Part shown: one piece after another, positions 1 through 36,996 of the stretch
Numbering within the stretch: the first letter of the stretch is position 1
Layout of the letters: every line of letters begins with the position of its first letter
Source of the DNA: Nemertoderma westbladi
Taxonomy: Eukaryota > Animalia > Xenacoelomorpha
DNA length: 36,996 bases
Assembly: GCA_032718475.1 (NCBI GenBank)
Contig: JAUCBJ010008589.1
Coordinates: 1-36,996, forward strand
Direction: 5' to 3'
Made by a program: the position numbers and the translations under genes
The notes under the pieces: generated by a model
What the model was told of the DNA's origin: nothing
Database searches by the model: none
Seen by the model: only the letters and a program-made list of their open reading frames with translations

Positions 1-9
1 TTTTGGGGT

Positions 10-7083: not shown

Positions 7084-7121
7084 ATGCTATCTTCTTACCG
7101 GGAAGATAGCATGGGGGGGAG
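7084..7121 (+). promoter_or_regulatory. 11-bp stem-loop followed by the polypurine tract (plus-strand primer)
   Basis: ATGCTATCTTC-TTACCGG-GAAGATAGCAT (7084-7112), then GGGGGGGAG (7113-7121) abutting the TG of the 3' LTR. Confidence 0.8.
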
Positions 7122-10600: not shown

Positions 10601-12838
10601 TGAACCCATTCCGGTACTCACCTAATTGAACCCATTCCGGTACTCACCTAATTGAAGCCATTCCGGTACTCACCTAATTGAACCCATTCCGGTACTCACC
10701 TAATTGAAGCCATTCCGGTACTCACATAATTGAACCCATTCCGGTACTCACCTAATTGAAGCCATTCCGGTACTTACCTAATTGAAGCCATTCCGGTACT
10801 CACCTAATTGAACACATTCCGGTACTCACCTAATTGAACCCATTCCGGTACTCACCTAATTGAAGCCATTCCGGTACTCACCTAATTGAACCCATTCCGT
10901 GACTCACCTAATTGAACCCATTCCGGTACTCACCTAATTGAACCCATTCCGGTACTCACCTAATTGAAGCCATTCCGGTACTCACCTAATTGAACCCATT
11001 CCGGTACTCACATAATTGAACCCATTCCGGTACTCACCTAATTGAACCCATTCCGGTACTCACCTAATTGAATCCATTCCGGTACTCACCTAATTGAACC
11101 CATTCCGGCACTCACCTAATTGAACCCATTCCGGTACTCACCTAATTGAACCCATTCCGGTACTCACCTAATTGAATCCATTCCGGCACTCACCTAATTG
11201 AACCCATTACGGTACTCACCTAATTCAATCCATTCCGGTACTCACCTAATTGAACCCATTCCGGTACTCACCTAATTGAACCCATTCCGGTACTCACCTA
11301 ATTGAACCCATTCCGGTACTCACCTAATTGAACCCATTCCGGTAGTCACCTAATTGAACCCATTCCGGTACTCACCTAATTGAACCCATTCCGGTACTCA
11401 TCTAATTGAACCCATTCCGGCACTCACCTAATTGAACCCATTCCGGTACTCACATAATTGAACCCATTCCGGTACTCACCTAATTGAACCCATTCCGGTA
11501 CTCACCTAATTGAAGCCATTCCGGTACTCACCTAATTGAACCCATTCCGGTACTCACCTAATTGAAGCCATTCCGGTACTCACATAATTGAACCCATTCC
11601 GGTACTCACCTAATTGAAGCCATTCCGGTACTTACCTAATTGAAGCCATTCCGGTACTCACCTAATTGAACACATTCCGGTACTCACCTAATTGAACCCA
11701 TTCCGGCACTCACCTAATTGAACCCATTCCGGTACTCACCTATTTGAAGCCAATCCGGTACTCACCTAATTGAACCCATTCCGGTACTCACCTAATTGAA
11801 CCCATTCCGGTACTCACCTAATTGAACCCATTCCGGTACTCACCTAATTGAACCCATTCCGGTACTCACCTAATTGAACCCATTCCGGTACTCACCTAAT
11901 TGAACCCATTCCGGTACTCACCTAATTGAACCCATTCCGGTACTCACCTAATTGAACCCATTACGGTACTCACCTAATTGAACCCATTCCGGTACTCACC
12001 TAATTGAAGCCATTCCGGTACTCACCTAATTGAACCCATTCCGGTACTCACCTAATTGAACCCATTCCGGTACTCACCTAATTGAAGCCATACCGGTACT
12101 CACCTAATTGAACCCATTCCGGCACTCACCTAATTGAACCCATTCCGATACTCACATAGTTGAACCCATTCCGGTACTCACCTAATTGAACCCATTCCGG
12201 TACTCACCTAATTGAACCCATTCCGGTACTCACCTAATTGAACCCATTCCGGCACTCACCTAATTGAACCCATTCCGGTACTCACATAATTGAACCCATT
12301 CCGGTACTCACCTAATTGAACCCATTCCGGCACTCACCTAATTGAACCCATTCCGGCACTCACCTAATTGAACCCATTCCGGTACTCACCTAATTGAAAC
12401 CATTCCGGTACTCACCTAATTGAACCCAATCCGGTACTCACCTAATTGAACCCATTCCGGTACTCACCTAATTGAACCCATTCCGGTTCTCACCTAATTG
12501 AACCCATTCCGGTACTCACCTAATTGAAGCCATTCCGGTACTCACCTAATTGAACCCATTCCGGTACTCACCTAATTGAACCCATTCCGGTACTCAGCTA
12601 ATTGAACCCATTCCGGTTCTCACCTAATTGAACCCATTCCGGTACTCACCTAATTGAACCCATTCCGGTTCTCACCTAATTGAACCCATTCCGGTACTCA
12701 CCTAATTGAACCCATTCCGGTTCTCACCTAACTGAACCCATTCCGGTACTCACCTAATTGAAGCCATTCCGGTACTCACCTAATTGAACCCATTCCGGTA
12801 CTCACCTAATTGAACCCATTCCGGTACTCACCTAATTG
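7659..12838. repeat. 26-bp satellite, about 200 copies (TAATTGAACCCATTCCGGTACTCACC), intronic
   Basis: Direct tandem repeat. The minus-strand unit reads CAATTAG|GTGAGTACCGGAATGGGTT. Variant patterns recur at offsets of 442, 858 and 1300 bp. Confidence 0.97.
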
Positions 12839-12915
12839 GCGTTGTTTTATAGAACCAGATTGAAGGCTGCTTCTCGGTGATTTTGTTTTTGTCCTCGATT
12901 TAACGGAATTGGTCC
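12832..12915 (-). CDS. TRIM-PARP exon (basic Ser/Lys-rich segment GTNSVKSRTKTKSPRSSLQSGSIKQRQL)
   Basis: Acceptor CCCAG, donor TAG|GTGAGT. The only open frame is the one required by the phase-1 upstream exon. Confidence 0.75.
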
Positions 12916-15900
12916 CTGGGTGACACGAAATATAATATCAGATTATGGAATTTGTCAATGTAATGCGAAGGCCGAAGACAAATAAATAATTTAATAGATT
13001 ATACATCTGTAGGTTTATTTTCTATACTTTGCAGATAGGGGGGGGGGGGGGGGGGGAGGGTCTCTAGATGCAATCAAAATGCATCCCTCTTCAGCTGAAA
13101 GCCGAGGTAAATAACAGCTGATTTAGAGTAAGCTAAGTATTTACTACTGCTAAGTATTTACTACTGCTAAGTATTTACTACTGCTAAGTATTTACTACTG
13201 CTAAGTATTTACTACTGCTAAGTATTTACTACTGCTAAGTATTCACTACTGCTTTAAGTATTTACTACTGCTAAGTATTTACTACTGCTAAGTATTTACT
13301 ACTGCTAAGTATTTACTACTGCTTTAAGTATTTACTACTGCTAAGTATTTACAACTGCTAAGTATTTACTACTGCTTTAAGTATTTACTACTGCTTTAAG
13401 TATTTACTACTGCTAAGTATTTACTACTGCTAAGTATTTACTACTGCTAAGTATTTACTACTGCTAAGTATTTACTACTGCTTTAAGTATTTACTACTGC
13501 TAAGTATTTACTACTGCTAAGTATTTACTGCTGCTTTAAGTATTTACTACTGCTGAGTATTTACAACTGCTAAGTATTTACTACTGCTTTAAGTATTTAC
13601 TACTGCTAAGTATTTACAACTGCTAAGTATTTACTACTGCTTTAAGTATTTACTACTGCTTTAAGTATTTACTACTGCTAAGTATTTACTACTGCTAAGT
13701 ATTTACTACTGCTAAGTATTTACTACTGCTAAGTATTTACTACTGCTTTAAGTATTTACTACTGCTAAGTATTTACTACTGCTAAGTATTTACTACTGCT
13801 AAGTATTTACTACTGCTAAGTATTTACTACTGCTAAGTATTTCCTACTGCTAAGTATTTACTACTGCTAAGTATTTACTACTGCTAAGTATTTACTACTG
13901 CTTTAAGTATTTACTACTGCTAAGTATTTACTACTGCTTTAAGTATTTACTACTGCTAAGTATTTACTACTGCTAAGTATTTACTACTGCTAAGTATTTA
14001 CTACTGCTAAGTATTTACTACTGCTAAGTATTTCCTACTGCTAAGTATTTACTACTGCTAAGTATTTACTACTGCTAAGTATTTACTACTGCTAAGTATT
14101 TACTACTGCTAAGTATTTACTACTGCTAAGTATTTACTACTGCTAAGTATTTACTACTGCTAAGTATTTACTACTGCTAAGTATTTACTACTGCTAAGTA
14201 TTTACTACTGCTAAGTATTTACTACTGCTTTAAGTATTTACTACTGCTAAGTATTTACTACTGCTAAGTATTTACTACTGCTAAGTATTTACTACTGCTA
14301 AGTATTTCCTACTGCTAAGTATTTACTACTGCTAAGTATTTACTACTGCTAAGTATTTAATACTGCTTTAAGTATTTACTACTGCTAAGTATTTACTACT
14401 GCTAAGTATTTACTACTGCTAAGTATTTACTACTGCTAAGTATTTACTACTGCTAAGTATTTACTACTGCTAAGTATTTACTACTGCTTTAAGTATTTAC
14501 TACTGCTAAGTATTTACTACTGCTAAGTATTTACTACTGCTTTAAGTATTTACTACTGCTAAGTATTTACAACTGCTAAGTATTTACTACTGCTAAGTAT
14601 TTACAACTGCTAAGTATTTACTACTGCTAAGTATTTACTACTGCTAAGTATTTACTACTGCTAAGTATTTACTACTGCTTTAAGTATTTACTACTGCTAA
14701 GTATTTACTACTGCTAAGTATTTACTGCTGCTTTAAGTATTTACTACTGCTGAGTATTTACAACTGCTAAGTATTTACTACTGCTTTAAGTATTTACTAC
14801 TGCTAAGTATTTACAACTGCTAAGTATTTACTACTGCTTTAAGTATTTACTACTGCTTTAAGTATTTACTACTGCTAAGTATTTACTACTGCTAAGTATT
14901 TACTACTGCTAAGTATTTACTACTGCTAAGTATTTACTACTGCTTTAAGTATTTACTACTGCTAAGTATTTACTACTGCTAAGTATTTACTACTGCTAAG
15001 TATTTACTACTGCTAAGTATTTACTACTGCTAAGTATTTCCTACTGCTAAGTATTTACTACTGCTAAGTATTTACTACTGCTAAGTATTTACTACTGCTT
15101 TAAGTATTTACTACTGCTAAGTATTTACTACTGCTTTAAGTATTTACTACTGCTAAGTATTTACTACTGCTAAGTATTTACTACTGCTAAGTATTTACTA
15201 CTGCTAAGTATTTACTACTGCTAAGTATTTCCTACTGCTAAGTATTTACTACTGCTAAGTATTTACTACTGCTAAGTATTTACTACTGCTAAGTATTTAC
15301 TACTGCTAAGTATTTACTACTGCTAAGTATTTACTACTGCTAAGTATTTACTACTGCTAAGTATTTACTACTGCTAAGTATTTACTACTGCTAAGTATTT
15401 ACTACTGCTAAGTATTTACTACTGCTTTAAGTATTTACTACTGCTAAGTATTTACTACTGCTAAGTATTTACTACTGCTAAGTATTTACTACTGCTAAGT
15501 ATTTCCTACTGCTAAGTATTTACTACTGCTAAGTATTTACTACTGCTAAGTATTTAATACTGCTTTAAGTATTTACTACTGCTAAGTATTTACTACTGCT
15601 AAGTATTTACTACTGCTAAGTATTTACTACTGCTAAGTATTTACTACTGCTAAGTATTTACTACTGCTAAGTATTTACTACTGCTTTAAGTATTTACTAC
15701 TGCTAAGTATTTACTACTGCTAAGTATTTACTACTGCTAAGTATTTACTACTGCTAAGTATTTACTACTGCTTTAAGTATTTACTACTGCTAAGTATTTA
15801 CTACTGCTAAGTATTTACTACTGCTAAGTATTTACTACTGCTAAGTATTTACTACTACTAAGTATTTACTACTGCTAAGTATTTACTACTGCTAAGTATT

Positions 15901-18900
15901 TACTACCGTACTGCTATGGTATTTAATTAATCAACTAACCACTGGATCCCTTTCTCGAAGTGACTCCGGAAGATTTACGACTATTCGTTCCGGTACGCCG
16001 TCCGTCTTCTCGGCTATCCAATACTCGTTTATTGACAGGTGTACCTGTCCGCCTCCCGGAACCAACTTCGCTTGCTTTCCCCTCTTCTGGAGTTCCTATA
16101 TAATTTACATGATATCACATAATTAATATACATTAAGTATATAACGCATATTATATAAGATACAAAAATAAATGATATCAATTTTAGTTGAGGTTAAAAA
16201 AAATCATCAATAATTGTTGCTTTATTTACTAATTATGTAGCTATTGACTTAGCACTTAATATTTTTGGGATTGATTAAGTTTGTAGACAACGTGGCATAT
16301 TTACCTGCATCTAATTGACTAGCGACACTGAATATCCGACAGACGTAAACGGCCCACCATTCCTCGTCTACTGATTGATCCGTGGAGCTCCAGACGAATC
16401 GAATACCCGACTCACCGTTAAAAGCTGTAAACAAATAAAGGATTTTGAAACATTTTTCAAAAACTTTTGATATTTAATTAATGATTAATTTACGCAGCAT
16501 TAAACCTTCAAACTGTAAACAAACCGTCACAATGTAAAATTATAGTGGGCAGAAGTAGAGCCTATACTGCTCTATAGCAGTATTTCCTGTTGCACTCTTA
16601 CTGTATAGGACACCAGATATCTTGCTCGTAAATACAGTTATACACCCGGATGCTATGCAGGTTAAATGGCTTAGGACAAGATACAATGCTCAGACACTAA
16701 CGATGCATTTTACAACTCGGGTGTAACTCTCTACATTACGAAACCCAGCATCATTCTGCAGGCATAGCGGCTTCGACTAACTTGTTCCCAGCTTCGAGGA
16801 TGGTATACGATCAATGAGACCCATGAACCCATCCCTGTTAATGTCAGCAATGTGTTCCATCTTATAAGGAGTGTGAAACATGTAGTGTTCCTCAACCCCT
16901 CCCTCATCCGTGTGTGTTTCGTGTCGATGTTTCTGATACGATTTAAATAACTCGGGATTTTGAAGACGTTTAATCTGCATTAGAAATTAAGAAACAAATT
17001 AGTTTGTTGATAAAGATTTGTAAGAAAATCTGAATGTTTTCTTACAAATTGAGGTATTCTCAGGAGGTTATTCTAGGAAAAGTCGATACAGTGTAATTCC
17101 TAAAAAAACTGAGAAATTAAAAGGCGTTAAATGATATACTATGAGTAGTTACTAACAGTTACAATAGACGGTTGTTTGTCGTCATCGCAACGGTCTATAA
17201 ACAGTTGTTGAACTCTCTGGTACTCGAAAGTAGAGGAATCTACCATCTCCACCAACACAAAGTCTTGCGTTACAGATTGAGGTAGCCACCAGTTAGGAAC
17301 ACAAAGACCTGCCAAACAATAGTATCTATAAATGTGAGCAATAAATTTCCTACGAGAAACTCATTATGATACTAAGACTCTGTTTTAGGAGGGTCATCTA
17401 ATATTGGCTGATGAATTGTATTACAGAAACAACACAAACGTACAATCAACCAATTCCGCAACAGAATCGGTGTTGCTCCTACTGTACCGGCAAGTAACTA
17501 AATACCAACACAATCATTGAGATATCGGCTACAACAATGACCATAATGCTCATATAACGGACAATATATCGTACCTTCTAGACTTATTTGAACTTAATGT
17601 TTATATTTTGCAACACGGAGAACCACCCAGGTCTTACCTCGTTTAACATTATCGTCGTATTCCGACATTTTCGTATCTTTGCCGGTAGAGGGCGTTACAC
17701 TAACGTTGAGATCCTGATTGGCTACAAGAGGAACTTGTATATTAAACACCATCTCGGAAGGGACAACATTGGGAAACCTGAGTAAGAGCTTATAGGGGCC
17801 GACATCAGTGACCTAAAGTAGAATGCGCGTAAATATATTATCGTAATTATGGCGATATTAATAAATATTCAATTGTAATATAAATTGTTAATTATTATTA
17901 ACCGGTACTATAAGAAGACTCTTCAGTATATAATGAATGATGTTATAATAGATGTTAGGGATGTTACATGTACGCACCTGCATCACTATAGATCGCATAT
18001 AGAGGTATGTTTATCTAACCTTAACTTTCAGCTTAAAACTTCCATCATTGTTGACGCTGGTAACAACTTTAACATTTACACCGTCCCAGTCGACAATATC
18101 GACATTGGCGTCGGACATCCTTAACGGCCCCTTAGCCACGCCCACATCCAACACAAAGGCTTTATCTGCAACCGATCCTCGTAACGAACCCTGTAACGCA
18201 ACAAACTCTTTACAGATAAATATAGTAAACATTATATCCTTCTGATTAAGTCTACAGTATATTATATTCTACAGGTACTACTATTAATTCCACAATAATA
18301 ATAAAAGTTGACTAAGATAACTCACTTATCTACAAACCATTAACACTGTAATATATGAAATAAAATCTAACATTACAATATGTATTCTAAATTATCATTC
18401 CGTGATATACCGATTACATGACTTACCTTAATATATTAATATTCAAAATAAAGTCATAGAATAGACCTACATTTTTATGGCTACATAATACATTCCTCCG
18501 AATGTTATAATACACTAAAAGAATCGTTTTTAGCAGCAAATATTCCATTTTAATAACCAATATAAATTTCAGCCACGTTTATAACATTACTGATAAATTA
18601 ACAGTTTATTATCTGTTATACTGTTATAGCGTAACTAAATTTATATCAGTTATTAAAATGGAATATTTGCGGCAATAAACGATTCTTTAAGTATAAACAT
18701 TATGAAGTCATCCAAGGCAATAATTATATCAAAATCATATTACAAATTCATTTTACATATTTCAAATCCAAAACCACCAATTAATATATAAAATGGTTCA
18801 AATACAGAGGACTTTGAAATACGTGGTCTATTCATGTCCCCAATAACCAGTAAATAAAATATACAAATACCTTGACGACAACCAGCTTCGGGAAGGTAAA

Positions 18901-21900
18901 TTCAGCTGCATGTTCTTTTACATCCTTAGTTGTTTGTAGATATCCAATACATTCGTAGTTGATATCCTTGTTCTCCTTTCTAGTTGGCGACACTGGTCTT
19001 CTTAAAGCAGTCAGAATATCTTTACTTCCGCACAGCATGGCCGGGGTTTCTGGGTTGAGTGAGAGGGCGCACCTAACCAGACCTGCGGCGTATTCTAACG
19101 ACTCTATACTCGTTACTGTCTTACCCAACCCCTCGTTAAGAGACCGACTCTCCACTTCCATTAACTCATTTAAGCCTTGTAATGTCTGTTCCGCGCGGTT
19201 GTTCAATATTTCGTGCATCTGTTTGTATTCCCGAAGTACCAGACTTTGTATCGTTGCCGCCGCGCTTCTGTGATTGGTCAGCTCAAGTTCAGTGGATATT
19301 TTGTTGTTCTGATTGGTTTCCAGTTGATTGGTCACGTGAGAAAGAATCTCTTCGACTTGCGTTATATAAGTGTCATCAACATCAACAAGTTCCACTGGAG
19401 CGTGACCTAAAGGAAGAATAAAAATTCATGAATATGTAAATAATAACAGTAAATAAGAATAAAATTAGATTATGTTAGAACATTTTTTTGCGTTCAATAC
19501 CATTACGAAGATTTCGACCATGTAGTGACGACCATGTTGGCCAACTATTCCGTATTGAATTCCAACAGCGTACAATAGTGTCTAACTAATAAACCAGTAA
19601 ATAAGGAATAACCACCTAAATCCGCCGAGTGCTTGGACATTGTACATGCTGGACAAGCAATGACGTCACAAGTAGTACAAAGGAAAGCAAATTCGGCCCC
19701 GTGTATGTCGCAAACTCTCTTTCTCTTTTCGGCAACATCCTGTTAATAAATAAATTAACAACGATAATTATAGGCCTACAGTATGGAACTGAAGATTATT
19801 CGACGCTTTGTGCTACTGTAAAGGGATAATTGTACATACAGTATTCTGATTATAGAAAATATTACTTACGCACAGCCAGCATCCATCCCTATCTGTCCAC
19901 TCTCCAACCTTACCTGGACATCCATCCCTATCTGTCCACTCTCCAACCTTACCTGGACATCCATCCCTATCTGTCCACTCTCCAACCTTACCTGGACATC
20001 CATCCCTATCTGTCCACTCTCCAACCTTACCTGGACATCCATCCCTATCTGTCCACTCTCCAACCTTACCTGGACATCCATCCCTATCTGTCCACTCTCC
20101 AACCTTACCTGGACATCCATCCCTATCTGTCCACTCTCCAACCTTACCTGGACATCCATCCCTATCTGTCCACTCTCCAACCTTACCTGGGCATCCATCC
20201 CTATCTGTCCACTCTCCAACCTTACCTGGGCATCCATCTATCTGTCCACTCTCCAACCTTACCTGGGCATCCATCCATCTGTCCACTCTCCAACCTTACC
20301 TGGACATCCATCCCTATCTGTCCACTCTCCAACCTTACCTGGGCATCCATCCCTATCTGTCCACTCTCCAACCTTACCTGGACATCCATCCCTATCTGTC
20401 CACTCTCCAACCTTACCTGGGTATCCGTCCATATCTGTCCACTCTCTAACCTTACCTGGGCATCCGTCCATATCTCTCCACTCTCCGACCTGGGCATCCA
20501 TTCATCTGTCCACTCTCCAAACTTACCTGGGCATCCATCCCTATCTGACCACTCTCCAACCTTACCTGGGCATCCGTCCATATCTGTCCACTCTCCAACC
20601 TTACTTGGACATCCGTCCATATTTATCCACTCTCCAACCTTACCTGGGCATCCATCCATCTGTCAACTCTCCAACCATACCTGGGCATCCATCCATCTGT
20701 CCACTCTCCAACCATACCTGGACATCCATCCCTATCTGTCCACTCTCCAACCATACCTGGGCATCCATCCATCTGTCAACTCTCCAACCATACCTGGGCA
20801 TCCATCCATCTGTCAACTCTCCAACCTTACCTGGACATCCATCCCTATCTGTCCACTCTCCAACCTTACCTGGACATCCATCCCTATCTGTCCACTCTCC
20901 AACCTTACCTGGACATCCATCCCTATCTGTCCACTCTCCAACCTTACCTGGACATCCATCCCTATCTGTCCACTCTCCAACCTTACCTGGGCATCCATCC
21001 CTATCTGTCCACTCTCCAACCTTACCTGGGCATCCATCTATCTGTCCACTCTCCAACCTTACCTGGGCATCCATCCATCTGTCCACTCTCCAACCTTACC
21101 TGGACATCCATCCCTATCTGTCCACTCTCCAACCTTACCTGGGCATCCATCCCTATCTGTCCACTCTCCAACCTTACCTGGACATCCATCCCTATCTGTC
21201 CACTCTCCAACCTTACCTGGGTATCCGTCCATATCTGTCCACTCTCTAACCTTACCTGGGCATCCGTCCATATCTCTCCACTCTCCGACCTGGGCATCCA
21301 TTCATCTGTCCACTCTCCAAACTTACCTGGGCATCCATCCCTATCTGACCACTCTCCAACCTTACCTGGGCATCCGTCCATATCTGTCCACTCTCCAACC
21401 TTACTTGGACATCCGTCCATATTTATCCACTCTCCAACCTTACCTGGGCATCCATCCATCTGTCAACTCTCCAACCATACCTGGGCATCCATCCATCTGT
21501 CCACTCTCCAACCATACCTGGACATCCATCCCTATCTGTCCACTCTCCAACCATACCTGGGCATCCATCCATCTGTCAACTCTCCAACCATACCTGGGCA
21601 TCCATCCATCTGTCCACTCTCTAACCATACCTGGACATCCATCCCTATCTGTCCACTCTCCAACCTTACCTGGGCATCCATCCATCTGTCAACTCTCCAA
21701 CCATACCTGGGCATCCCTATCTGTCCACTCTCCAACCATACCTGGGCATCCATCCATCTGTCAACTCTCCAACCTTACCTGGGCATCCATCCCTATCTGT
21801 CCACTCTCCAACCATACCTTGGCATCCCTATCTGTCCACTCTCCAACCATACCTGGGCATCACTATCTGTCCACTCTCCAACCTTACCTGGGCATCCCTA

Positions 21901-24900
21901 TCTGTCCACTCTCCAACCATACCTGGACATCCCTATCTGTTCAATCTCCAACCATACCTGGGCATCCCTATCTGCCCACTCTCCAGCCTTACCTGGGCAT
22001 CCCTATCTGTCCACTCTCCAACCGTACCTGGGCATCCCTATCTGTCCACTCTCCAACCTTACCTGGGCATCCCTATCTGTCCACTCTCCAACCATACCTG
22101 GGCATCCGTCCATCTGTCAACTCTCCAACCATACCTGGGCATCCATCCCTATCTGTCCACTCTCCAACCATACCTGGGCATCCCTATCTGTTCAATCTCC
22201 AACACTACCTGGGCATCCCTATCTGTCCACTCTCCAACCATACCTGGGCATCCCTATCTGTCCACTCTCCAACCATACCTGGGCATCCCTATCTGTCCAC
22301 TCTCCAACCATACCTGGGCATCCGTCCATCTGTCAACTCTCCAACCATACCTGGGCATCCATCCTTATCTGTCCACTCTCCAACCATACCTGGGCATCCC
22401 TATCTGTTCAATCTCCAACACTACCTGGGCATCCCTATCTGTCCACTCTCCAACCATACCTGGGCATCCCTATCTGTCCACTCTCCAACCATACCTGGGC
22501 ATCCCTATCTGTCCACTCTCCAACCATACCTGGGCATCCGTCCATCTGTCAACTCTCCAACCATACCTGGGCATCCATCCCTATCTGTCCACTCTCCAAC
22601 CATACCTGGGCATCCCTATCTGTTCAATCTCCAACACTACCTGGGCATCCCTATCTGTCCACTCTCCAACCATACCTGGGCATCCATCCCTATCTGCCCA
22701 CTCTCCAACCATACCTGGGCATCCCTATCTGTTCAATCTCCAACCATACCTGGGCATCTCTATCTGTCCATTCTCCAAGATTCACCACTTTATGGTCATT
22801 AAATCTTCGCATCTTCGAATGATATTCTAGACATTCTTCACAAAAAACCAAATCGCAGTCGATGCATACCAGCGTTCCTTTTAACATAAAATGTAAAATT
22901 TGTAACGTAAAATATCATTTATTAAACTGATAACATTTGAACAGACCAAATTAAGCACCGTGTTAAATTATTACTCAATTACTCTAAGTGGCTGTAAGTG
23001 TATATTCTTATTACTGCTACTACTATGGTTTACCTAGACATACCGGTATGCATATTACCAATTGGGGTGTCGTTTCAGCCCATTTTAGCATAATTAACAT
23101 TTAGTTTAACAATTCGTTTCGAAAATATTTAATTTCGATATTTACCATTTAAGGAACCTTTTAAAGGAAAGTAGCAGGTCATAATGGAAGGCTTTTCTAA
23201 CCAAAACAATAAACTAAATTGAGGAACACAGTTTACAGTAATTTACAGTATTTTTACTTTTCAATATTAATTTAACATTAACCTTATGGGAAGGCTGAAA
23301 CTACACCCCAATTGGAAATTTGCATACCGTACAGCAATACCAAGGACTACTGAAGCAAGGACTGGCACACGGCAAATCCGTTTCCCCTTGAGCACCTTAG
23401 ATCCTGAACGAACTTAGATCTTGGGTGGACATAGATCCTTCCCATACGAACTTAGATCCCTCCCATACGAACTTAGATCCTTCCCATACGAACTTAGATC
23501 CTTCCCATACGAATTTAGATCCTTCCCATACTAACTTAGATCCTTCCCATACGAACTTAGATCCTTCCCATACGAACTTAGATCCTTCCCATACGAACTT
23601 AGATCATTCCCATACTAACTTTAGATCCTTCCCATACGAACTTATAGATCTTCCCCATACGAACAGTTAGGATCTAAGTTAACCTAGATAGGATCTAAGT
23701 TCACCCTGTTAGGATCTAAGTTCACCTACTGTAGTTAGGATCTAAAGTTCACTAGTTAGGATCTAAGTTCACCCAGATAGGACCTAAGTTCGGAAAGATA
23801 CAAGTTCATCAAAGTCAGGCCTTGCGGGATCTAAGTTCGTTTTACCGGTAAATCCTGACTTCGCTAGCGAAGGCCAGGCCATGCAGCCATGTTCAGATGT
23901 TGATACCGATGTTCAGATGCAGATGTCGTACAGCTATTACCGGCAAGGACTACTTGGTTACCGGTAACCAGTTTGAATGATAAACATACACCTGTACACA
24001 CTCTGTGGTAAAAAATTATGTAGAATCGATTTCTGGTATTATCCGGCAGCCCGGTACTGCAGTACTGTATTAGTTTTTCAATTAGGCCTACCGCATACCG
24101 GTACCTACTGACCTATTGATATTGCTTTCAAGTATTGCTTTCTACAGTTCTATATTTTAATGTTTCTTAATAATGTCTGAATGTAGAGCTGTAGAGTACC
24201 GGTCTGCCGATAGCTGTATATATACTCGTACTGTACAATCGGACAACTGCACTGAACTGTGGTGTGGTATATCTGTATATGGTTATGGTACCGCGTACCG
24301 GTATAGGCCTAGGCAGATAGGCCTAGTTCAGTAGTTCAGGTACAGAGAACAGAGGTACCGGTAATCCTCCGAAACGGCGTAGCACATGCACATACAGACG
24401 TATTGACGTACAAGCACTGCTGCACTGAAGCACGTACCACTGTACCAGTGCAGCAGTGTACCACGTCATTTCGCCACACAGCCACACAACCGTCATGACC
24501 GTCAGACCGTACAGCCGTAACTATTATCAGATTATTACAGTATTAATTTGATTTGATTATTAGTAACTGGATTGCCGCATTGCCAATGCGACTAAGCGAT
24601 GACACTATGATGGTTCGCCTTTCATCTAAGGGCTGAAGGGTAGAAAGCGGTCATCTGTACCAACCTGCAACCAGGCTGGTTACCACCCACTGCTGCACTG
24701 GCAGACTGGCTTGGCTGACTGGATGAGGCAGTGAGGTTCGAGAGTTTCCCGAGGGTGTTCCGCACATCAAGCTGTCAAGGAGGCCGGTTGGGTCGTTCAG
24801 TCGTTGCAATTGCAACCATTACACCAAATGAATTTCCCAGAGTACCAGCAACCTGTCACTGTCAGGGTCAGCCTGTATACCGCGCGCACCTTCGACGCCA

Positions 24901-27900
24901 AGTCAGGCGTCAGCACGTCAAACTCCGCCTGTCGAAGAACGACAGATTAGCTCATTGAACTCGAAGGACTTCTGGACTTGGTAGCTGGGTTCGTTGAACT
25001 TGATGCCTGGATGCTGGTATCTTCTCCTGGATGCCTGGGTGCACGATCTGCCATGTGCCATTGATGTGCCGATGCTGCGATGTGCCGCACATTGACATAT
25101 ATCCAAAATAGCCATAATCAACACTGTCAGACTGTACGATATATTTCAGTGACATATTCGTGATCAGCATCCCAAAACACCTACTGACCCATATCTGTAG
25201 GCCTATATGGTTATAAAATCAATTTGATTTTGTGGTAATTTTTCATTATCATATTTTTGCACTAGGCTGCTAGGCCTACTTGTTTTTTCGTGCCTCAGAG
25301 GGCACATTCAACTGTTCAAAATTACCATTTAATTGTAATGCTATTAATAATAATGCTATTTAATTAATAAAGAGCCCATATTATCATCAGGGCCATTGGC
25401 CATTGATGTGTTCTCTGGAGTGGGGAATATTTGGTCGGCAATCATAATAATAAATAATATAAACACAAAAATATAGAAAATAATTCATGAAAGCAACAGA
25501 TAATTGAGAAACTAATTCCAAAAATAGATTCTCCATAATTGTTTACCCCAGAGCTGCTAAGCGTGTATGTTTATCATTCAAACTGGTTACCGGTAACATA
25601 AACAACATGGCCTCGCTAGCGAAGTCTGGATTTACCGTATGCCTGCCCTTGCTTCAGTAGCCCTTGATCAATACCGGTACTGAAAAGTTATCGGTCTGTG
25701 GTAGGCTTACCGTACCGGTCAGCGGATAGTGTCAGTGTTAGTAATACTGAAAAACTAAAGATGTCTGATTTTAGTAAATTCGCAAATGATGATTTCGACG
25801 CTGCCGATTGGATTAATGCTGGTTTTTCTGGATTTGAAGAACATGGTAAAACCAGGGAAGCTCACGCAACGACACTTGTTACAAAATTGCAACTATTTAT
25901 ACAGGTTGGTTTTTGGGCTGCTGGCCTGACAGCGCTCCCGCTCCTCTACCACTGGCGCCAGCGGTACGGTAAGCCGTGCCGATGCCACTGACTGGTATTC
26001 ACTGTTATTTTCACTCAAATCAAGAAACGTCGTTCATATGTATTTTATTTGCCAGTTTGCGCTGGAGATATGCAGATAGGCGTATGTCAGTATGTGTGCA
26101 GGTGTGGGGTTGTAGTATGTAGTATAAAAGTGTGGTCTCGGTTGTGAAGTGTGATGGCGTGAGACAGAGGGGGCGGGTGGCGGGCCCGGGGATCCCATCT
26201 CTGCGCATTACATGAATAAATGATTCCGTCTCTGTTAAATTACCAATTTAGGATTCACTTTGGCACGTTATTGAGTTATTCTATCCATAAAAATAAACTA
26301 AAGTCAATAGAACAGGTAGTACAGTAGTACGGTACTGCTCTAGTATGAAACCTCATGGTCTGAGTTTCTCGACAACTTCGTCTGATTGATCCATTACCAT
26401 TTTAAACTACCTGCAATTTTTAAGTCCGAAACAAATTTACCTTATTTTAAAATATAATAATAAGAAGATAAATTAAATTTATTAAAAATAATAAGATAAA
26501 TTAATTATAGATAAATTTAAACAATTTATCTTATTTTATTACTAATAAATACATTTTACATACATTAATTGAATTTATTTATTTTACATTAGTTCAGTAC
26601 ATTATTTCATGCCGAAAGGCGAAATTGAATAAATATATAAGAATATAGCACTGTGTAACAGGTTACAGGTTACAGTTCTATTTTTTTGAGTAGTCAGTTG
26701 TTATTTGCGTCGATATTCACATGGGCTGGAGCCTGCAGGGGGATGAGTTTTGAATGCATCGAACGTCCCATATCTGGATGTGGCTCACAGTTGAAGTTCA
26801 GAAGTTGACAGTCTGGGGTCGGACGGTCGGGGTCTGGTCTCTTGTTCGGCTGCTGCACTATTATTTTAGTAGGTGTTAGGCCTACCTACTCGTTTACCGG
26901 TTGAAGTTGAGTTTTTTTATTTATTTTTTTTTCAGGAAGTGAATCAATCGTTAGAGGAACTGTGCCATCTCTCTGTCAGCAATCTGCCGAGAGTTCTACG
27001 TGACATTGACGTCATTAAACAGGAAACTAATTTCCTGGACAAACAATTAAGGAGTGTCAGTGGAGATATTGAACAGGTACCGCCACCAGTACTTACCCTA
27101 TTAGTACCTGCAGTATGTACGGGTCCTACTAAAAACCGTAATTTACCGCAATTTACCGCAACTAATTGTCATTTTCTAGCAGCCCCATGGTCTAGTGGTA
27201 ACAACCTTAGGCTTCCACGTAGGAGGCCCTGGTTCGATCCCTTGACCAGGCAACGCTGTTTTTGCAGTGTTTTAAAAACTACAAAATTTATATTTAATGC
27301 TGTAAAATGTGATCAATATAAAAACCAATATATGGCGTATATTGGCCATATCGTATATCGTCCAATATATGCCAGTATATGTATATATATATACATTAGA
27401 TTAGACAGTTGTTACAGGGTCCTACGAATTAGGCCTACCCCTAAATAGTCACTAAATACCACAAAAAGTCTAAACTATTTACCGAAACTATTTACGACGT
27501 CATAATTTCTGGTCGACCACAAATTATGACGCCGTGGAGAACTTCTGAAAAAAAAGTTAAAAAAAATTAATTAATTGGCAAAGATCAGCCAGCGTAGATC
27601 TGACACCAGATACTAAGTAACAGTAACCTGACCGTTTCACCACCACCCCCCCCCCCCCCCCCCCCCCGAACGCTACTATTTAATTTTACTAACTTTAACT
27701 TTTTTAAATTTTACTACTATTCTCTACATTATCTAGTTTCATAGTTATTTATTCTTTTTTTTTCAATTCGTTAACTCAAATGACATTAAAGCGTTCTAAT
27801 TATTAGTAAGTTTTATAATGTTGGAACGATCCTGTGTCAGTTGCAGACTATCATAAATCAAAACAATAAACGCGAGCTAAGAGCACAGGTTGCTGTATAC

Positions 27901-30900
27901 GCCAAATTATTTTGACTCAACTTAAACTTTGAGGTTAACGTTGTTTCTATTGCCTCCAGGTTGAGTGCAGCACCAATAAAACGATGAGTCATCTGGTCCA
28001 TCTCGACTCGTACAAAACGCGGATCGAGACCGCGTTACAGACACTCCGGGAGGCAGACAACTGGACGGTGCTGACAGCCGACACCGACCGAGTGATGCAG
28101 ACACACGACGCCCGACTGATCCTCGAGCAACTGGTCGCCATGGAGGCGAGTCTGCGCGCGCTCCGGGGATTCCCGGAGTACGACGAACGCGAGACCAAAC
28201 TGGATTCCTTGAAGGACCGCTTGGAGGCGTTGGTTAGTCCGCGTCTCGTCGACGCGATTAACCGTCGGCAGACAGACCGAGCCGCTGAGTTGGTGGCCGT
28301 ATTTAAAGGAATGAACCGCACCGAGCAGGTTTACATCTACTACTACCGAGCGAAGCGAGCGAGTTTCCAGAAGGAGTGGCACCGCCTAGTGTCGGAGCGC
28401 GGTGTCGGAGACGCGAGTTTGACGGACTTCCTTCAGACGGTTCTGTGCGCGTCGTTGGCTGCGGAAGCCCGTTGGTGCGACGAGGTAATCGGACCCGCGA
28501 CGCCGATTATTCTCGAGTTGTTGTCGCGAACTCTATCAGGTTTAGAACCTCCCGTCTCCGCCGTCGTCGAGAGTTTCCTCACCGAGGAATCCTTCGCCAT
28601 TGACGGTTTAATATCCGCCAAGTCGATTATCCTAAACTTCCTCCAGGAAGTTTATTTCGTTTTAGGTAATTCCTACGATCCGTCATTCTCTTCCAGTTTC
28701 GACTTCATCCGGCAGGTTTGGTCGCCTTTGTTTCCGTATTTATCGACTTATTCCGACTTAGAGAGCGACTACATAACGGGTCGATGCCGCGATATGTCCT
28801 GGAATATCGTGGGAAAGGATATCCCCGATATCAGGGATATCCTAACGAAGAATTGTTGTGTTATATTCGATATCCTGGAGGAATCCCTCAACCACTGCGT
28901 TCTGTTTACCGATTGTCTCGCAGCCCCGGGGTTTGTAGAAACTATTCGTTCGAGTTTCTCCAACTTTATGGTTCAACTCGAGGCTTTTCTAGCCGAAATC
29001 GTTACCGTAGCAACTGATGACGCCAACTACTGGGAATATTTCGGTTTGTCGGTGAACTTCATCGAAGTTTGCGGTTCGATGTTATCCAAACTGAACTCGT
29101 TAGAATCGAATATATTCGAGCGGTTTATAACAACATTAAGTAAATATATAAATACAGACAAACAAACTAAATCGCTTTATGATCATTTTAATTACCTAGA
29201 AAGTCAAGACGAAGAGAAATTCGAGTATTTATGTAAATTCTACCGGGAACTCGAAACAGATGTTGAGGTTTCCAGACCCCTCGAGGTTTATATTAACAGA
29301 TTAAACAATTCGGCCCATCAGTTATCCTTCGATTTGCTTTTCGCTCCGATTAAGCGGCTGTTGGAACCGATTCAGTCGATGGATGTTTGGTCGGGAACGG
29401 AATCCGACGGTGGTCTGGAGATTCCCTCCTACGGGAAGGTTCCCCAGGAGTACATCACCCTGATCGGCTCCTTGTTGATGTCGTTACCGCAGCAACTCGA
29501 GCCCTACATGCTGGAAGGCAACCCGGATCTCTCATTTGCTGTTCGGCTGGGTAGACTGCCCTACCCCGAGGAGGGAGGCTCTCGGGAGGATTCCCTCGCT
29601 CTCCATTGGTTGTCCTCTGTTTCCCGTGCGACCATGCACACGATGGGACAGGCCGTACTCCTGATACCTCGGTTGTCCAATCACGGGGCCGGACAGTTAG
29701 CCGTCGACCTCCAGTATTTACTTAATGTGGTTGAGAGTCTAGGGTTGACTCCATTGTCTACGTTGTTACACATCGTAACCTTGGCAACGGTTAACGTGGA
29801 TGATTTTGTTGACGTTGCCATGAGAATTCCAGCTCGGATTAGCCAATCAATGCGTTCTATGCGAAATATATAATAAATTATAAATACCAGCTGCACCGTG
29901 TGCACACACACAGCTGCAATGTGTGCACACACACAGCTGCACCGTGTGCACACACACAGCTGCATCGTGTGCACACACACACAGCTGCACCGTGTGCACA
30001 CACACAGCTGCACCGTGTGCACACACACAGCTGCACCGTGTGCACACACACAGCTGCAATGTGTGCACACACACAGCTGCAATGTGTGCACACACACACA
30101 GCTGCACCGTGTGCACACACACAGCTGCACCATGTGCACACACACAGCTGCACCGTGTGCACACACACAGCTGCAATGTGTGCACACACACAGCTGCACC
30201 GAGTGCGTGCACACACACAGCTGCCCCGTGTGCACACACACAGTTGCAATGTGTGCACACACACAGCTGCACCGTGTGCACACACACAGCTGCAATGTGT
30301 GCACACACACAGCTGCACCGTGTGCGTGCACACACACAGCTGCCCCGTGTGCACACACACAGTTGCAATGTGTGCACACACACAGCTGCAATGTGTGCAC
30401 ACACACACAGCTGCACCGTGTGCACACACACAGCTGCACCATGTGCACACACACAGCTGCACCGTGTGCACACACACAGCTGCAATGTGTGCACACACAC
30501 AGCTGCACCGTGTGCGTGCACACACACAGCTGCCCCGTGTGCACACACACAGTTGCAATGTGTGCACACACACAGCTGCAATGTGTGCACAGCACACACA
30601 CAGCTGCAATGTGTGTCTCATCGTAAACTTCCACTCCGTATAGCTGTTGGTTGTTGACCTTTATTATTCTATTTTATATTTCTCTTATTAATAACTAATT
30701 AGTGCCGTTGGTGGTAATATTATTCTATTTATTGATTATTGTTGTGCTCGGAGGGTTTCTAGGCAATTATTTATTTTATTTTTATGATAAACGCCGATTA
30801 TAATATTATCGACAATTTATCTCTAACGGTTTTTTCCCCCACCAACTCAGCGCTTCCAACAGCTGCTGGAGACCCAACCAGTCCTGTCGCTGCCGCCACT

Positions 30901-33900: not shown

Positions 33901-36900
33901 TAACCCGATAGTTTTATTAGGCCTACATAATTTATTGTCTTGTCGTTCCGAGGCCCTGCAATCAACGAACCGTCGCAATAACAATGCAAGTAAAGGGGAA
34001 CAATATCGCATTACAAGGCTCGGGTTCGGAAATTATATTGGCAACGTCATCAGATGAAAATCATCTACCAGAGTGCATGATTGATGGTAAAGATGGTACT
34101 TTCTGGATCACAACCGGAATGTATCCACAGCAGTTTGTCATTCGTTTCAACCAAGCCGCCAATATTAACAACATAAACATTTCGTCAAACAGTGTTAAAC
34201 ATATTATTGTCCAGAAGAGCTCGAAAAGTGAACCGGGTGATTATGAGATTCTCGCAGAAAAGGTTTTTACCCAAACCGATGGACATTTACAAGACGAACA
34301 GTTCGATTTAGGAACAGCTAAAGGCAACACAACGGCAACCTACCTTCGCTTTGTTATTAATTCTGGCTACGATCACTTTGCCTCCATACACGGGTTGAAT
34401 ATATCTGGGGAATTCGTTTAAAACTTAATTGCAGTACCTGTTTGTGTATACTATAGCTGTACCATTTGTATCTATAAGGGCTTAACCACATTACAGGCGC
34501 TTACATTTCACGTCTACTTCAGCACCTATGCTATTAGTTATCGTTTACTGTTTTGGTAAGATAATCCCGCCTCTGCAACCTGCGCCTTTCCTATAATTCT
34601 GTAATTTTTAATTTATACAATAAAATTTAAATTGTACAATAAATTTATGCACCAGTTAATTTCCAATGTGGGTGCCTCTTGTGCGAAATCCGTATATCTA
34701 AATTTTACTGTAAAATCTACATAATTAATATACAGTATTTGTGTGTAATGTAAAGTAGCATTCCACTTTACAGTGTGCTGATCAAAGTTGTTTGTTACAC
34801 GAACGAACGTAGTGAGCGAGTAAAAATAAAGATACGACGAGCAGAATACGAAACGAAACAAACATCATATTATTACTAACATTATCAGTTTTCGTACCAG
34901 TACATTTGCGAGATTATGGTGATAGTCATTCAATAGTTAATGATTTGTTTAGATAAGTTGGCATGTATCTATTTTAATTTCGCCAGTACCACATCATACA
35001 GTATAATCTATAGCGCCGTGATCCATGATGTAATCAATGGTCTTTATGACATAGTCATAAAATTTTGGAATAAAAAATGTTAGCTCTGTATTCTGTATAT
35101 ATATATAGCCTATGCCGTGGATGTTATTGTTTGCAATTTATAACTGATTTAATATATACTTACTTAAAAAAGTATTAAATTAACTAAATTAAAAAAAACG
35201 ATTAAATATATTTTATTATGAGTAATATTCCATTCCAGGTAAATAATTGTTATACGATGTATTTACAAATGCCTATTCATCAAATTAATTATTTATAGTA
35301 TAATAATATTTGTTTCGAGGCCGAAGGCCGAGGGAAAAATGCTTTTACTAATTTCGAGGAAATGTGGATTACAAAGGGGACAAATGAAATATTAAAATAA
35401 TTTTTTTTCAGCCCTTGAGAATCAATGTTAACAGGCTCACAAGGCTGGCAAATCGGCATACATACTGTACTTCAAGATTTATGACGTTCTTTTTTTGTTA
35501 CGTAAACCATCTGCGAATGCCATTGGCTGGACCGCAAAGATTGAAATTCTTCAATTATGTTGCCAATATGTGATATCAGCCTCATAATCTATAACGAGTT
35601 CTGTGGGGCGAGCCACGCAGTCAGGGTGAGCCTTAGCGCACAATTATAATTGGTAAATAGGGCGAAATTTAATGTCCGTCTGTCTGTAAGTCTGTAATGA
35701 AAAATTCATTTGTAAATAACTTTTGAAGATTTTAACCATTTTCAACCAAATTTTGTATGGGTATACTAGAGAAAAAGTTCCAATATTTTTGAAAGTTACG
35801 GGCAAATACCTCTCGAACTTTTGACTACAGATCAAATCGAACTTGCTTAAGTTCGTGTGCTGCGCGACGCCCCGCGAAAGTGTGCAATGTGCGATTACAT
35901 TCGTGTATCATAGGGCTCTATATAATACCGCATCCGTATTAGGGAAAGGGTTAAGTAAAAATTATCCCTTTAGGGGCACGCTGTGTCATTGTGATAGGAC
36001 TGTACAGAACTAAAGACACCATACTTGTGAGAGTTTTAAATTTACAATATTATTTATGATATTTTTTAATTTTTTTCTGCTACCCGAAAGGAGCCAGACA
36101 CTGGAGCAGTCAATCAACTTACCTGGAATACTGTTGTCGCAGTTTTGGCATGTTTTTTTCTGTCCGAGTTTCAACGCCTCTCTCACATCCTTGAGATGTA
36201 AAATTAAAGCGTTTGTGTTCAATTCTGCGGAGCTGGTCCCTTGGAGTTGAGTCTCCGTGCCGCACTGGGGGCAGACTATCGCATCCTTTGTAGTTAAATC
36301 CTCGTGTAAGCATTCTGTACAGAAACTGTGCACACAAAGCAATCTCTTCGGGGGCCTACAACATTGTAAATATCAATAGTAATGCACCTCGCATAACGAG
36401 GCCGTTGCGTTAAAAACACAATCTGTTTGTATCCAAACACAGTTGTACATAAATGTACATACTACTAAACAAAGCATCCCGCCTTGAAAATAAATTCGAA
36501 TCTCGTACTTCTAAATTGATTTGTGTGTAATGTAAAGTAGCACTTTACATTGTGATAAAAAAACATTGTGCTGACCCGAGTGTATTGAAACATACGAGGA
36601 TCAGGACATTATTGTTAAAGCAGCAAGTAGGTAAATTATGTAATTCCAACGACTGCTTTTGAAAAGCTGTAGATGTAACCGTTGTTTTTTGATTTTTTAA
36701 AATAAATTTATAGAGTATTATTTATATATGATTTCTTAAAGTAGTCACTGCCAATAGTGTTTTAGAACCGCATCACTGTCAGCAATCCCAAAACAGTAGA
36801 ACTCACCTATCTTTAGAATATCTTCTGTTACAAGCGGTGCACTTTATAAAGTTCACCGGAACCGGTGACGATTCCAATTCAGTCGAAGTTCGTGAAACCA

Positions 36901-36934
36901 AACCAGAAACCTCTTTACTCCCAATAACAGAATC
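12832..36934 (-). CDS. Multi-exon TRIM-family gene (RING, B-box1, B-box2, coiled coil, filamin/Ig-like) fused to a divergent PARP-like catalytic domain; partial, both ends outside the window
   Basis: Manually joined exons 36934-36807, 36355-36123, 22877-22750, 19739-19616, 19406-18871, 18190-18020, 17812-17638, 17308-17157, 16974-16782, 16424-16305, 16095-15940 and 12915-12832. All junctions are GT-AG, phases match and there is no stop over 2200 nt. Confidence 0.85.
13132..15905. repeat. 17-bp (19-bp variant) satellite GCTAAGTATTTACTACT, about 160 copies, intronic
   Basis: Direct tandem repeat. Diagnostic variants recur at a 1197-bp offset (13521/14718; 14351/15548). Confidence 0.97.
15940..16095 (-). 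CDS. TRIM-PARP exon (low-complexity GTPEEGKASEVGSGRR...SRKGSS)
   Basis: TATAG acceptor, G|GTTAGT donor, phase 1/1, open frame. Confidence 0.78.
16305..16424 (-). CDS. TRIM-PARP exon, PARP-like core (TFNGESGIRFVWSS...WAVYVCRIF)
   Basis: TTTACAG acceptor, CAG|GTAAAT donor. GIRF and VYVCRI align by eye with the PARP GxYFA and MFLARV strands. Confidence 0.78.
16782..16974 (-). CDS. TRIM-PARP exon, PARP-like (IKRLQNPELFKSY...EHYMFHTP...INRDGF)
   Basis: Matches the mono-ART PARP pattern IERIQNxxLWxxY...ExxLFHGT...IxxxGF. Splice sites are phase-consistent. Confidence 0.82.
17157..17308 (-). CDS. TRIM-PARP exon, start of PARP-like domain (VPNWWLPQ...LVEMVDSSTFEYQRVQQLF)
   Basis: PxxW...LVxL...SxEYxxVxxxF pattern that opens PARP7/11/12/14-type catalytic domains. 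The donor could alternatively be at 17163 (same phase). Confidence 0.8.
17638..17812 (-). CDS. TRIM-PARP exon, end of filamin/Ig-like domain plus linker (VTDVGPYKLLLRF...)
   Basis: TTTAG acceptor, GAG|GTAAGA donor, phase 0/1, open frame. Confidence 0.78.
18020..18190 (-). CDS. TRIM-PARP exon, filamin/Ig-like beta domain (...VVTSVNNDGSFKLKVK)
   Basis: NNDGSF resembles the filamin-repeat DNxDGTY motif. TTACAG acceptor, AAG|GTTAGA donor, 57 codons. Confidence 0.75.
18871..19406 (-). CDS. TRIM-PARP exon, coiled coil (BBC region)
   Basis: Part of ORF 18832-19395; helical, heptad-rich; phase 1/0 splice sites. Confidence 0.83.
19616..19739 (-). CDS. TRIM-PARP exon, B-box type 2 (CDIH...LCTTCDVIACPACTMSKH...GH)
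   Basis: Cys/His spacing of B-box2. AACAG acceptor, TAG|GTGGTT donor. Confidence 0.85.
19879..22778. repeat. 35/39-bp minisatellite, about 80 copies, made of exon tail plus splice donor
   Basis: Minus-strand unit TTGGAGAGTGGACAGATAGGGATG(GATG)CCCAG|GTA(T/A)GG. Contains an 800-bp internal duplication (20222/21022). Confidence 0.96.
22750..22877 (-). CDS. TRIM-PARP exon, second part of B-box1 (TLVCIDCDLVFCEECLEYHSKMRRFNDHKVV)
   Basis: Completes the CQNC...G begun in exon 36123-36355. AAAAG acceptor, CAG|GTATGG donor, phase 0 into B-box2. Confidence 0.86.
23043..23329. mobile_element. MITE-like element, about 290 bp, TA-flanked (Tc1/mariner-like)
   Basis: Imperfect TIRs of about 36 bp: CGGTATGCATATTACCAATTGGGGTGTCGTTTCAGCC and GGCTGAAACTACACCCCAATTGGAAATTTGCATACCG. 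Contains one inverted copy of the 68-bp unit arrayed at 32016-32700. Confidence 0.7.
23341..25666. mobile_element. Degenerate non-autonomous TIR DNA transposon (8-bp TSD; hAT/P-like ends)
   Basis: Ends CAAGGACTACTGAAGCAAGG and CCTTGCTTCAGTAGCCCTTG; flanks AGCAATAC and ATCAATAC (7/8 match). Inverted homology continues (23957-23991 is the reverse complement of 25563-25597). No intact transposase. Confidence 0.75.
23380..23845. repeat. Foldback-like insert: 21-bp tandem repeat (GATCCTTCCCATACGAACTTA) followed by inverted AGGATCTAAGTTC copies, interrupting the left TIR
   Basis: About 11 tandem units, then about 7 inverted core copies. Flanked by CGGCAAATCC (23370-23379) and CGGTAAATCC (23846-23855). 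Confidence 0.7.
25761..29873 (+). CDS. COG7: Conserved oligomeric Golgi complex subunit 7, 3 exons (25761-25904, 26936-27076, 27960-29873), 732 aa; nested antisense in the TRIM-PARP intron
   Basis: MSDFSKFANDDFDAADWINAGF...HATTLVTKLQLFIQ|EVNQSLEE...LPRVLRDID...LREADNWTVL...PQEYITLIGSLLMSLPQQLEPY matches recalled COG7 motifs. Both introns are phase-0 GT-AG. Confidence 0.93.
27181..27252 (+). pseudogene. tRNA-derived sequence (SINE head or tRNA pseudogene) in COG7 intron 2
   Basis: A-box-like TGGTCTAGTGG and B-box GGTTCGATCCC at tRNA spacing. Acceptor and anticodon stems pair poorly. Confidence 0.6.
29888..30615. repeat. 23-bp minisatellite CAGCTGCA(CC/AT)GTGTGCACACACA just 3' of the COG7 stop
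   Basis: About 30 tandem copies with 25-27 bp variants. Confidence 0.95.
30914..31198. repeat. 18-bp minisatellite ACGGAGACACCACATGCG, about 16 copies
   Basis: Direct tandem repeat with patterned CAG/CAC variants. Confidence 0.95.
32016..32700. repeat. 68-bp minisatellite, about 10 copies, probably transposon-derived
   Basis: Unit GTTTATTGTTTTGGTTAGAAAATCCCGCCTCTGTAACCTGCTCCTTTCC...; single dispersed copies at about 23163-23214 (inverted) and about 34543-34591. Confidence 0.9.
33100..33450 (-). pseudogene. Frameshifted non-LTR retrotransposon (LINE) reverse transcriptase fragment
   Basis: Across frames: KVLESCI, DNQFGFWKGLGTEMCIF, SPVFSAFLDA, FDRVSHFKLFRKLL and YWYSHQLVCVTWG, in the order of the LINE RT motifs QFGFR...FLDxSKAFDRV. 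Confidence 0.8.
33984..34421 (+). CDS. IFT25: Intraflagellar transport protein 25 (HSPB11), single coding exon, 145 aa; nested antisense in the TRIM-PARP intron
   Basis: LATSSDENHLPECMIDG..TFWITTGMYPQQFVIRF...ATYLRFVINSGYDHFASIH matches IFT25/HSPB11 in motifs and length. Confidence 0.93.
   Translation: MQVKGNNIALQGSGSEIILATSSDENHLPECMIDGKDGTFWITTGMYPQQFVIRFNQAANINNINISSNSVKHIIVQKSSKSEPGDYEILAEKVFTQTDGHLQDEQFDLGTAKGNTTATYLRFVINSGYDHFASIHGLNISGEFV
36123..36355 (-). CDS. TRIM-PARP exon: RING C-terminal part (PKRLLCVHSFCTEC...CPQC) and start of B-box1 (KTCQNCDNSIP)
   Basis: C3HC4 RING pattern. TGTAG acceptor, CAG|GTAAGT donor. Confidence 0.88.
36807..36934 (-). CDS. TRIM-PARP exon: first RING ligands (FIKCTACNRRYSKD)
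   Basis: TTTGCAG acceptor, TAG|GTGAGT donor. The phase-2 join completes the RING. Confidence 0.82.
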
Positions 36935-36996
36935 CTGCAAATATTATTGAATGTTACCTCATGGGATACCGAAGGATGAAATGCTAGGACTACTTT

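Follow-up and report, generated by a model that had tools for sequence, protein, structure and literature searches.

A predicted Nemertoderma westbladi gene that joins a TRIM tripartite motif and filamin repeat to a PARP-like domain

The minus strand of contig JAUCBJ010008589.1 from the xenacoelomorph Nemertoderma westbladi (assembly GCA_032718475.1; the whole stretch analysed, positions 1 to 36,996, is called the window below) encodes a predicted protein in which a RING finger, two B-boxes and a coiled coil (together RBCC), followed by a filamin repeat, lead into a domain resembling those of clade-3 PARPs. On its predicted sequence the protein is a member of TRIM subfamily C that carries the PARP-like domain in place of the usual NHL propeller. 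This TRIM architecture is undescribed in the literature that we searched, and the protein is probably not a ligase-transferase but a double pseudo-enzyme. The explanation that we favour, and to which we give a roughly even chance, is a single gene for a dimeric binding scaffold, composed of a subfamily-C TRIM in which a PARP14-type domain replaces NHL and in which both the RING and the PARP part are catalytically dead. Within this explanation, the domain order, the in-phase junctions and the loss of the residues named below are features of the predicted gene itself.

The gene was rebuilt from the sequence as a spliced minus-strand model of 2,200 nt and 733 codons with no stops. As the initial annotation had proposed, 12 predicted exons, each preceded by AG and followed by GT, join in phase, and the model reproduces the gene limits then given, 36934 and 12832. 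Splice sites were ranked against nearby GT and AG dinucleotides with a leave-one-out matrix derived from the gene's own sites (11 training sites). Donors rank first in 7 of 12 cases and among the top two in 10 of 12, and the corresponding figures for acceptors are 5 and 8 of 12. Neither end of the gene is closed within the window. Exon 1 begins with an acceptor, an in-frame ATG is missing ahead of the RING, and the true first exon lies beyond position 36996; exon 12 has no stop codon and runs to a donor.

The tripartite motif is spread over the first five exons. Exon 1 (36934-36807) encodes an N-terminal linker and the first two RING cysteines, exon 2 (36355-36123) the remainder of the C3HC4 RING, the post-RING helix and the first two cysteines of B-box1, exon 3 (22877-22750) the rest of B-box1, exon 4 (19739-19616) B-box2, and exon 5 (19406-18871) the last B-box2 histidine, the coiled coil and a linker. 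Because the zinc-binding domains thus straddle the junctions, with B-box1 divided across a 13.2-kb intron, exons 1-5 are tied together. Pfam searches were run on single exons, and the joined protein was scored with custom profiles. All eight RING zinc ligands are present over exons 1-2; the RING half in exon 2 matches Pfam with an E-value of 1.6e-4, below the gathering score, and the B-boxes match above it, exon 3 to ANCHR-like_BBOX (E 9.5e-7) and exon 4 to zf-B_box (E 2.1e-8). Against the PDB, exon 3 matches the TRIM28 B-box (E 7e-5), and exon 2, over both the RING and the post-RING helix, matches TRIM2 (E 1.8e-4), TRIM56 (E 2.8e-4), TRIM32 and TRIM3; RNF4 matches exon 2 equally (E 1.9e-4) but over the RING core only. 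The assignment to subfamily C follows from the RING being closest to TRIM2, TRIM56, TRIM32 and TRIM3, all of which the accessible text of PMC3503706 places there in the Marin scheme. AlphaFold2 predicts exon 5 alone as a single 87-residue helix (residues 11-97), mostly with a predicted local distance difference test (pLDDT) score of 90 or more, and a Foldseek search of the PDB with this exon returned only two matches, both weak, to the coiled coils of TRIM20 and TRIM5alpha (E 1.8 and 2.0). In the PDB, exon 1 has no match and exon 6 only weak, unrelated ones.

The filamin-type Ig repeat begins in exon 6 (18190-18020) and ends in exon 7 (17812-17638), which also encodes a linker and whose donor forms the TRIM-to-PARP junction. 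A profile of 19 filamin repeats, chosen by motif out of 121 metagenome loci, aligns in register over exons 6-7 with 12.8 bits on its region, a score reached by none of 2000 shuffles nor by the reversed sequence; in viral contigs the motif found 1 filamin-like fragment among 44 loci, which was left out of the profile. No NHL repeat was matched by Pfam on any exon in the window, and the filamin repeat is followed instead by the PARP-like domain.

This domain starts in exon 8 (17308-17157). Its core, in exon 9 (16974-16782), includes the catalytic histidine (residue 582), followed by threonine instead of glycine, and the D-loop, and exon 10 (16424-16305) encodes a degenerate Tyr strand and the next β strand. 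The clade-3 PARP profile comprised 58 sequences, namely 15 of 33 viral loci, picked by their Tyr motif, and 43 non-redundant domains obtained from 119 that were cut out of 120 listed proteins. It matches the joined protein with 43 bits over residues 502-644 (profile positions 6-142 of 199), the match beginning in exon 8 and ending in exon 10. The PARP region alone scores 47.7 bits, which none of 2000 shuffles reaches, the best having 6.5 bits, and on the same region a profile of 50 PARP1-like phage sequences stays below 0 bits. The match to the former profile and the failure of the latter point to a domain of the clade-3 type (PARP7, PARP9-15). Against the PDB, exon 9 alone matches only PARP14 (E 0.08), and exons 8 and 10 have no match; Pfam on single exons finds neither PARP nor filamin. 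Viral contigs also carry short, stand-alone PARP14-like domains of about 180 residues with an intact His-Gly and Tyr site (loci L046, L048, L050, L051, L053, L054, L057, L060-L062, L065-L068 and L075) and a large family of PARP1-like proteins with the full His-Tyr-Glu triad (loci L203-L272, from which 50 sequences were used).

The RBCC-filamin-PARP-like architecture of the initial annotation is thus recovered in one predicted gene, with matches for the RING, both B-boxes, the coiled coil, the filamin repeat and a clade-3 PARP. Its expectation for the individual searches was borne out in part: RING and zf-B_box were found by Pfam on the exons, and filamin and PARP, missed by Pfam, were found with the custom profiles. 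That the two parts form an in-frame TRIM-PARP fusion within a single spliced gene is, on the predicted splicing, very probable. Introns 5-10 are short (182-680 nt), and no AATAAA or ATTAAA occurs in introns 6-8. We consider it very unlikely that there are two adjacent genes here, or an RBCC-filamin gene like TRIM45 followed by PARP exons that are not joined to it in frame: intron 7 has only 329 nt and no poly(A) signal, the strong exon-7 donor (first of 25 nearby GTs) is in phase with the acceptor at 17308, and the frame of exon 8 has no methionine ahead of the conserved domain start, so that an upstream exon is needed. What speaks for separate genes is that read-through of exon 7 soon meets a stop, that the join is so far a predicted one, and that the in-frame acceptor at 17308 scores lower than an out-of-frame one at 17349 (5.3 versus 8.4 bits, with a small matrix); use of 17349 would end the protein about 25 codons on, ahead of the PARP domain.

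The catalytic state of the RING was assessed by mapping it onto TRIM2 through the PDB alignment, with the numbering anchored on His40 and the equivalents of Ile25 and Glu28 located by counting from the first cysteine pair. According to the accessible text of PMC9732051, mutation of Arg64, or of Phe81 to alanine, abolishes the activity of TRIM2, and Ile25, Glu28, Tyr50, Pro61 and Val62 contact the E2. The predicted RING has glycine at the linchpin Arg64 and alanine at Phe81, the latter being the very change tested in TRIM2; at the E2 contacts it has Ala (25), Arg (28), Asp (50) and Gln (62), with Pro61 kept, and the equivalents of His40, Leu86 and Asp88 are also kept. In the PARP-like domain the residue after the retained histidine is threonine, where 58 of 58 profile members have His-Gly, and the tyrosine of the Gly-x-Gly-x-Tyr motif, likewise found in 58 of 58, is replaced by threonine in the profile register or by arginine in an alternative register set by eye. 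ZAP, RCD1 and TASOR, which are without two or more contacts to nicotinamide adenine dinucleotide (NAD), are described as inactive in the accessible part of bioRxiv 2020.03.09.974832. By this comparison the RING and PARP parts are both likely to be catalytically dead, and the loss in both of residues needed by active relatives points to a scaffold for binding, not to a double enzyme.

Ubiquitin ligation coupled to an ADP-ribosyltransferase, the activity first proposed for this protein, is therefore not borne out for either half: the RING is without the residues that in TRIM2 activate the E2~Ub conjugate, and the PARP-like domain is without the NAD-binding glycine, the catalytic tyrosine and, apparently, the last strands. 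An active two-enzyme protein, ubiquitylating and ADP-ribosylating one target, strikes us as highly improbable. It can draw on the retention of all eight RING ligands, of the TRIM2 His40, Leu86 and Asp88 equivalents and of the PARP histidine, and E3 or E2 domains fused to PARPs do exist, in the Dictyostelium U-box-macro-PARP and the clade 6A UBCc proteins (PMC2964712, accessible text); it has to contend, however, with changes at the linchpin arginine, Phe81 and four E2 contacts, as well as with the missing NAD-site residues and final PARP strands.

In the binding scaffold that we favour, the coiled coil would form the usual antiparallel TRIM dimer, such dimers being the rule for TRIM coiled coils, and would hold two heads, each a filamin repeat plus pseudo-PARP, at a wide distance from each other. 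A ligand, most likely RNA or a ribonucleoprotein, may be bound by the pseudo-PARP together with the basic tail that follows it, in a way that we liken to the NHL domain of some class VII TRIMs and to the dead PARP of TASOR, and ubiquitin could be transferred only with the help of an active RING from a partner, in the manner of TRIM3 when it pairs with TRIM2. The biological role of the protein may lie in the control of RNA or transposons or in ordinary development. In the accessible portions of the two sources, some class VII TRIMs bind RNA through NHL and TRIM2 is the active partner of TRIM3 (PMC9732051), and the dead PARP of TASOR binds single-stranded RNA weakly (bioRxiv 2020.03.09.974832).

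Retention of the zinc ligands of three domains and of an open frame argues for constraint. We think it rather unlikely that the locus is instead a young or decaying chimera, formed when part of a PARP gene was taken up by a TRIM gene; both halves would now be drifting, and the PARP part would be unselected. Such decay would fit the fact that each module has lost catalytic residues and that the PARP part is apparently truncated, and also the large tandem arrays that have expanded from two donor sites, the long terminal repeat (LTR) element beyond exon 12 and the failure to find a relative with exons 5 and 9. Yet there are 733 codons without stop or frameshift, all zinc ligands are kept, and three PARP exons have stayed in frame although too diverged for Pfam or word-based searches, which would be hard to account for without selection. 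A tblastn search within the window found no paralogous exons, only copies of the end of exon 3 in a 39-mer array. A search of representative sequences with exon 9 gave 5 proteins, each of which proved on inspection to be internally repetitive and unrelated.

Besides the predicted join and the competing acceptor at 17349, the following points weigh against the binding scaffold as pictured here. When homologues were sought by word-based matching, neither the 2 candidates for exon 9 nor the 1,524 for exon 5 yielded a match at E 10. Inactivity is predicted by analogy with TRIM2 and with a set of 58 PARPs, 15 of which were chosen by the same Tyr motif. The PARP-like domain is acidic, with 14 Lys/Arg versus 24 Asp/Glu in 153 residues, so that RNA binding by the domain alone is not favoured. 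Finally, the last 57 of the 199 PARP profile positions are unmatched in the canonical reading, and the domain may therefore not fold unless it is completed elsewhere.

In the canonical reading, exon 11 (16095-15940) encodes a basic tail rich in Ser, Gly, Arg and Lys, which exon 12 (12915-12832), whose acceptor is the weakest of the model (rank 6 of 10), continues to its donor; the 80 residues after residue 653 are rich in Ser, Thr, Gly, Lys and Arg, with 19 Lys/Arg versus 6 Asp/Glu. The missing PARP strands could lie in an exon outside the window. A second frame, open throughout exon 11 and stopping in exon 12, offers a different solution, unlikely in our estimate, in which it would supply the last strands of a complete PARP fold, with a glutamate at the third catalytic position. 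Three routes could lead into this frame: a GC donor lying 4 nt before the GT, a single-base error in the assembly, or a frameshift of recent date. The protein would then end in exon 12, with 728 residues in the window; still without the tyrosine and glycine, it would most likely remain a pseudo-PARP.

In the second frame, a stretch of 24 residues lines up in register with the final strands of the PARP fold and lies about 32 residues past the last matched strand, compared with 29-35 in aligned members. With a mixed matrix this stretch scores 4.7 bits and ranks 11th of 15,255 windows, a score that synonymous resampling reaches 3 times in 3000 and codon shuffling 9 times in 3000, and a whole-codon model also prefers the second frame (-0.8 and +1.2 versus -4.7 and -4.5 bits). 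However, the mixed matrix was built after the motif had been seen, and both single matrices give negative scores, reached by 35 and 76 of 3000 resamples; true members score at least 20 bits, and the full PARP profile does not extend into the second frame. The canonical donor at 16305 and acceptor at 16095, moreover, both rank first and yield the first frame. If the second frame were the coding one, chance would leave the first open in only 0.9-2.5% of resamples, compared with 15-24% for the reverse case, so that openness favours the canonical frame about tenfold, with synonymous usage tied. Searched against the PDB, the second frame of exon 11 matches only a DNA ligase (E 0.67).

The earlier statement that no characterised TRIM class with a PARP domain is known agrees with the TRIM and PARP surveys searched, within their accessible text. 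The word 'PARP' is absent from that text in the TRIM surveys PMC3503706 and PMC2533329, as is 'B-box' in the PARP surveys PMC2964712 and PMC4245714, although the domain tables in the supplements of either group could hold such a protein. The accessible portions of PMC8195603, PMC9334734, PMC11377751 and PMC10450202 mention no TRIM-PARP fusion, and literature searches returned no paper on one. PARP surveys do report fusions of PARPs with U-box, UBCc, UBA and UIM domains (PMC2964712, PMC4245714, accessible text). No B-box or RING Pfam family occurs in the 120 PARP matches listed of 707, which are mostly vertebrate PARP14, and it is quite possible that uncatalogued TRIM-PARP cases exist in other invertebrates.

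Among known proteins, the members of TRIM subfamily C (classes VII and X: TRIM2, TRIM3, TRIM32, TRIM45, TRIM56 and TRIM71; PMC3503706 and PMC9732051, accessible text) have the same order of B-box, coiled coil and filamin repeat. TRIM71 has two B-boxes, as in the predicted fusion, but class VII TRIMs have NHL after filamin, where the fusion has the PARP-like domain, and its RING is without the linchpin arginine and Phe81. TRIM45 has the filamin repeat only, with no further C-terminal domain. With the clade-3 PARPs, as delimited in the accessible text of PMC2964712, the fusion shares the catalytic-domain sequence, on the evidence of the 43 bits given by the PARP12/14/15-based profile; unlike theirs, its PARP domain is not preceded by a macro, WWE, CCCH or RRM domain, has lost the glycine and tyrosine of the NAD site and, in the canonical reading, has no recognisable last strands. 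The pseudo-PARPs ZAP/PARP13, TASOR, RCD1 and PARP9 also combine a degenerate NAD site with a predicted non-catalytic role, but they have complete folds, which the fusion appears to lack in the canonical reading, and no RBCC fusion. ZAP and PARP9 act with separate ligases, TRIM25 and DTX3L. A ubiquitin-system domain and a PARP domain in one chain are found in the Dictyostelium U-box-macro-PARP and the clade 6A UBCc-PARP proteins (PMC2964712, PMC4245714, accessible text), which have a U-box or an E2-like domain instead of a tripartite motif and are not animal proteins.

A bolder interpretation, which we regard as speculative and rather doubtful, is that the gene represents a new TRIM class with a clade-3 PARP in the place of NHL, its dimer sensing viral or transposon RNA through the pseudo-PARP heads and recruiting ubiquitylation, and that it has been under selection across an animal lineage. 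In the RNA defence of mammals, TRIM proteins and clade-3 PARPs work together as separate chains, and, if the interpretation were true, one chain would do what mammals do with TRIM25 plus ZAP. A one-chain form of this kind in nature would demonstrate that the TRIM-PARP partnership can be hard-wired and would provide a test of what a dead PARP binds at the site of the TRIM target-recognition domain; with both catalytic sites apparently lost, the protein is also a candidate double pseudo-enzyme. The weight of the case is limited by its being a single predicted gene in one animal and by the familiarity of C-terminal swaps, which are a known habit of the TRIM family.

The window consists of intron-containing eukaryotic DNA with many tandem arrays and no CpG depletion (observed/expected 1.07). 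Two housekeeping genes on the plus strand, which do not belong to the fusion gene, lie nested antisense in its intron 2, the 13.2-kb intron that splits B-box1: COG7 (25761..29873; 3 exons, 733 codons; Pfam COG7 E 5.7e-96) and the intronless IFT25/HSPB11 (33984..34421; PDB 1TVG E 1.8e-34, IFT25 E 7.8e-23). Just upstream of the COG7 start is an 85-nt inverted near-copy with 85% identity (23957-24041 and 25513-25597). A 39-mer array at 19879-22778 (about 78 copies) has been amplified from the end of exon 3 and its splice donor, and a 26-mer array at 7654-12838 (about 199 copies) from the end of exon 12 and its donor, both yielding runs of repeated donor-like sites. The exon 12 donor faces a 5.2-kb satellite and then a 7.6-kb LTR retroelement that runs to the window edge (1-7654, plus strand) and adjoins the 26-mer array. 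This element, which we take to be BEL/Pao-like, has a 1,720-codon open reading frame with DUF1759 and aspartic protease matches and no reverse transcriptase match, and over 313 nt the sequences of its two LTR-like ends agree to 96%.

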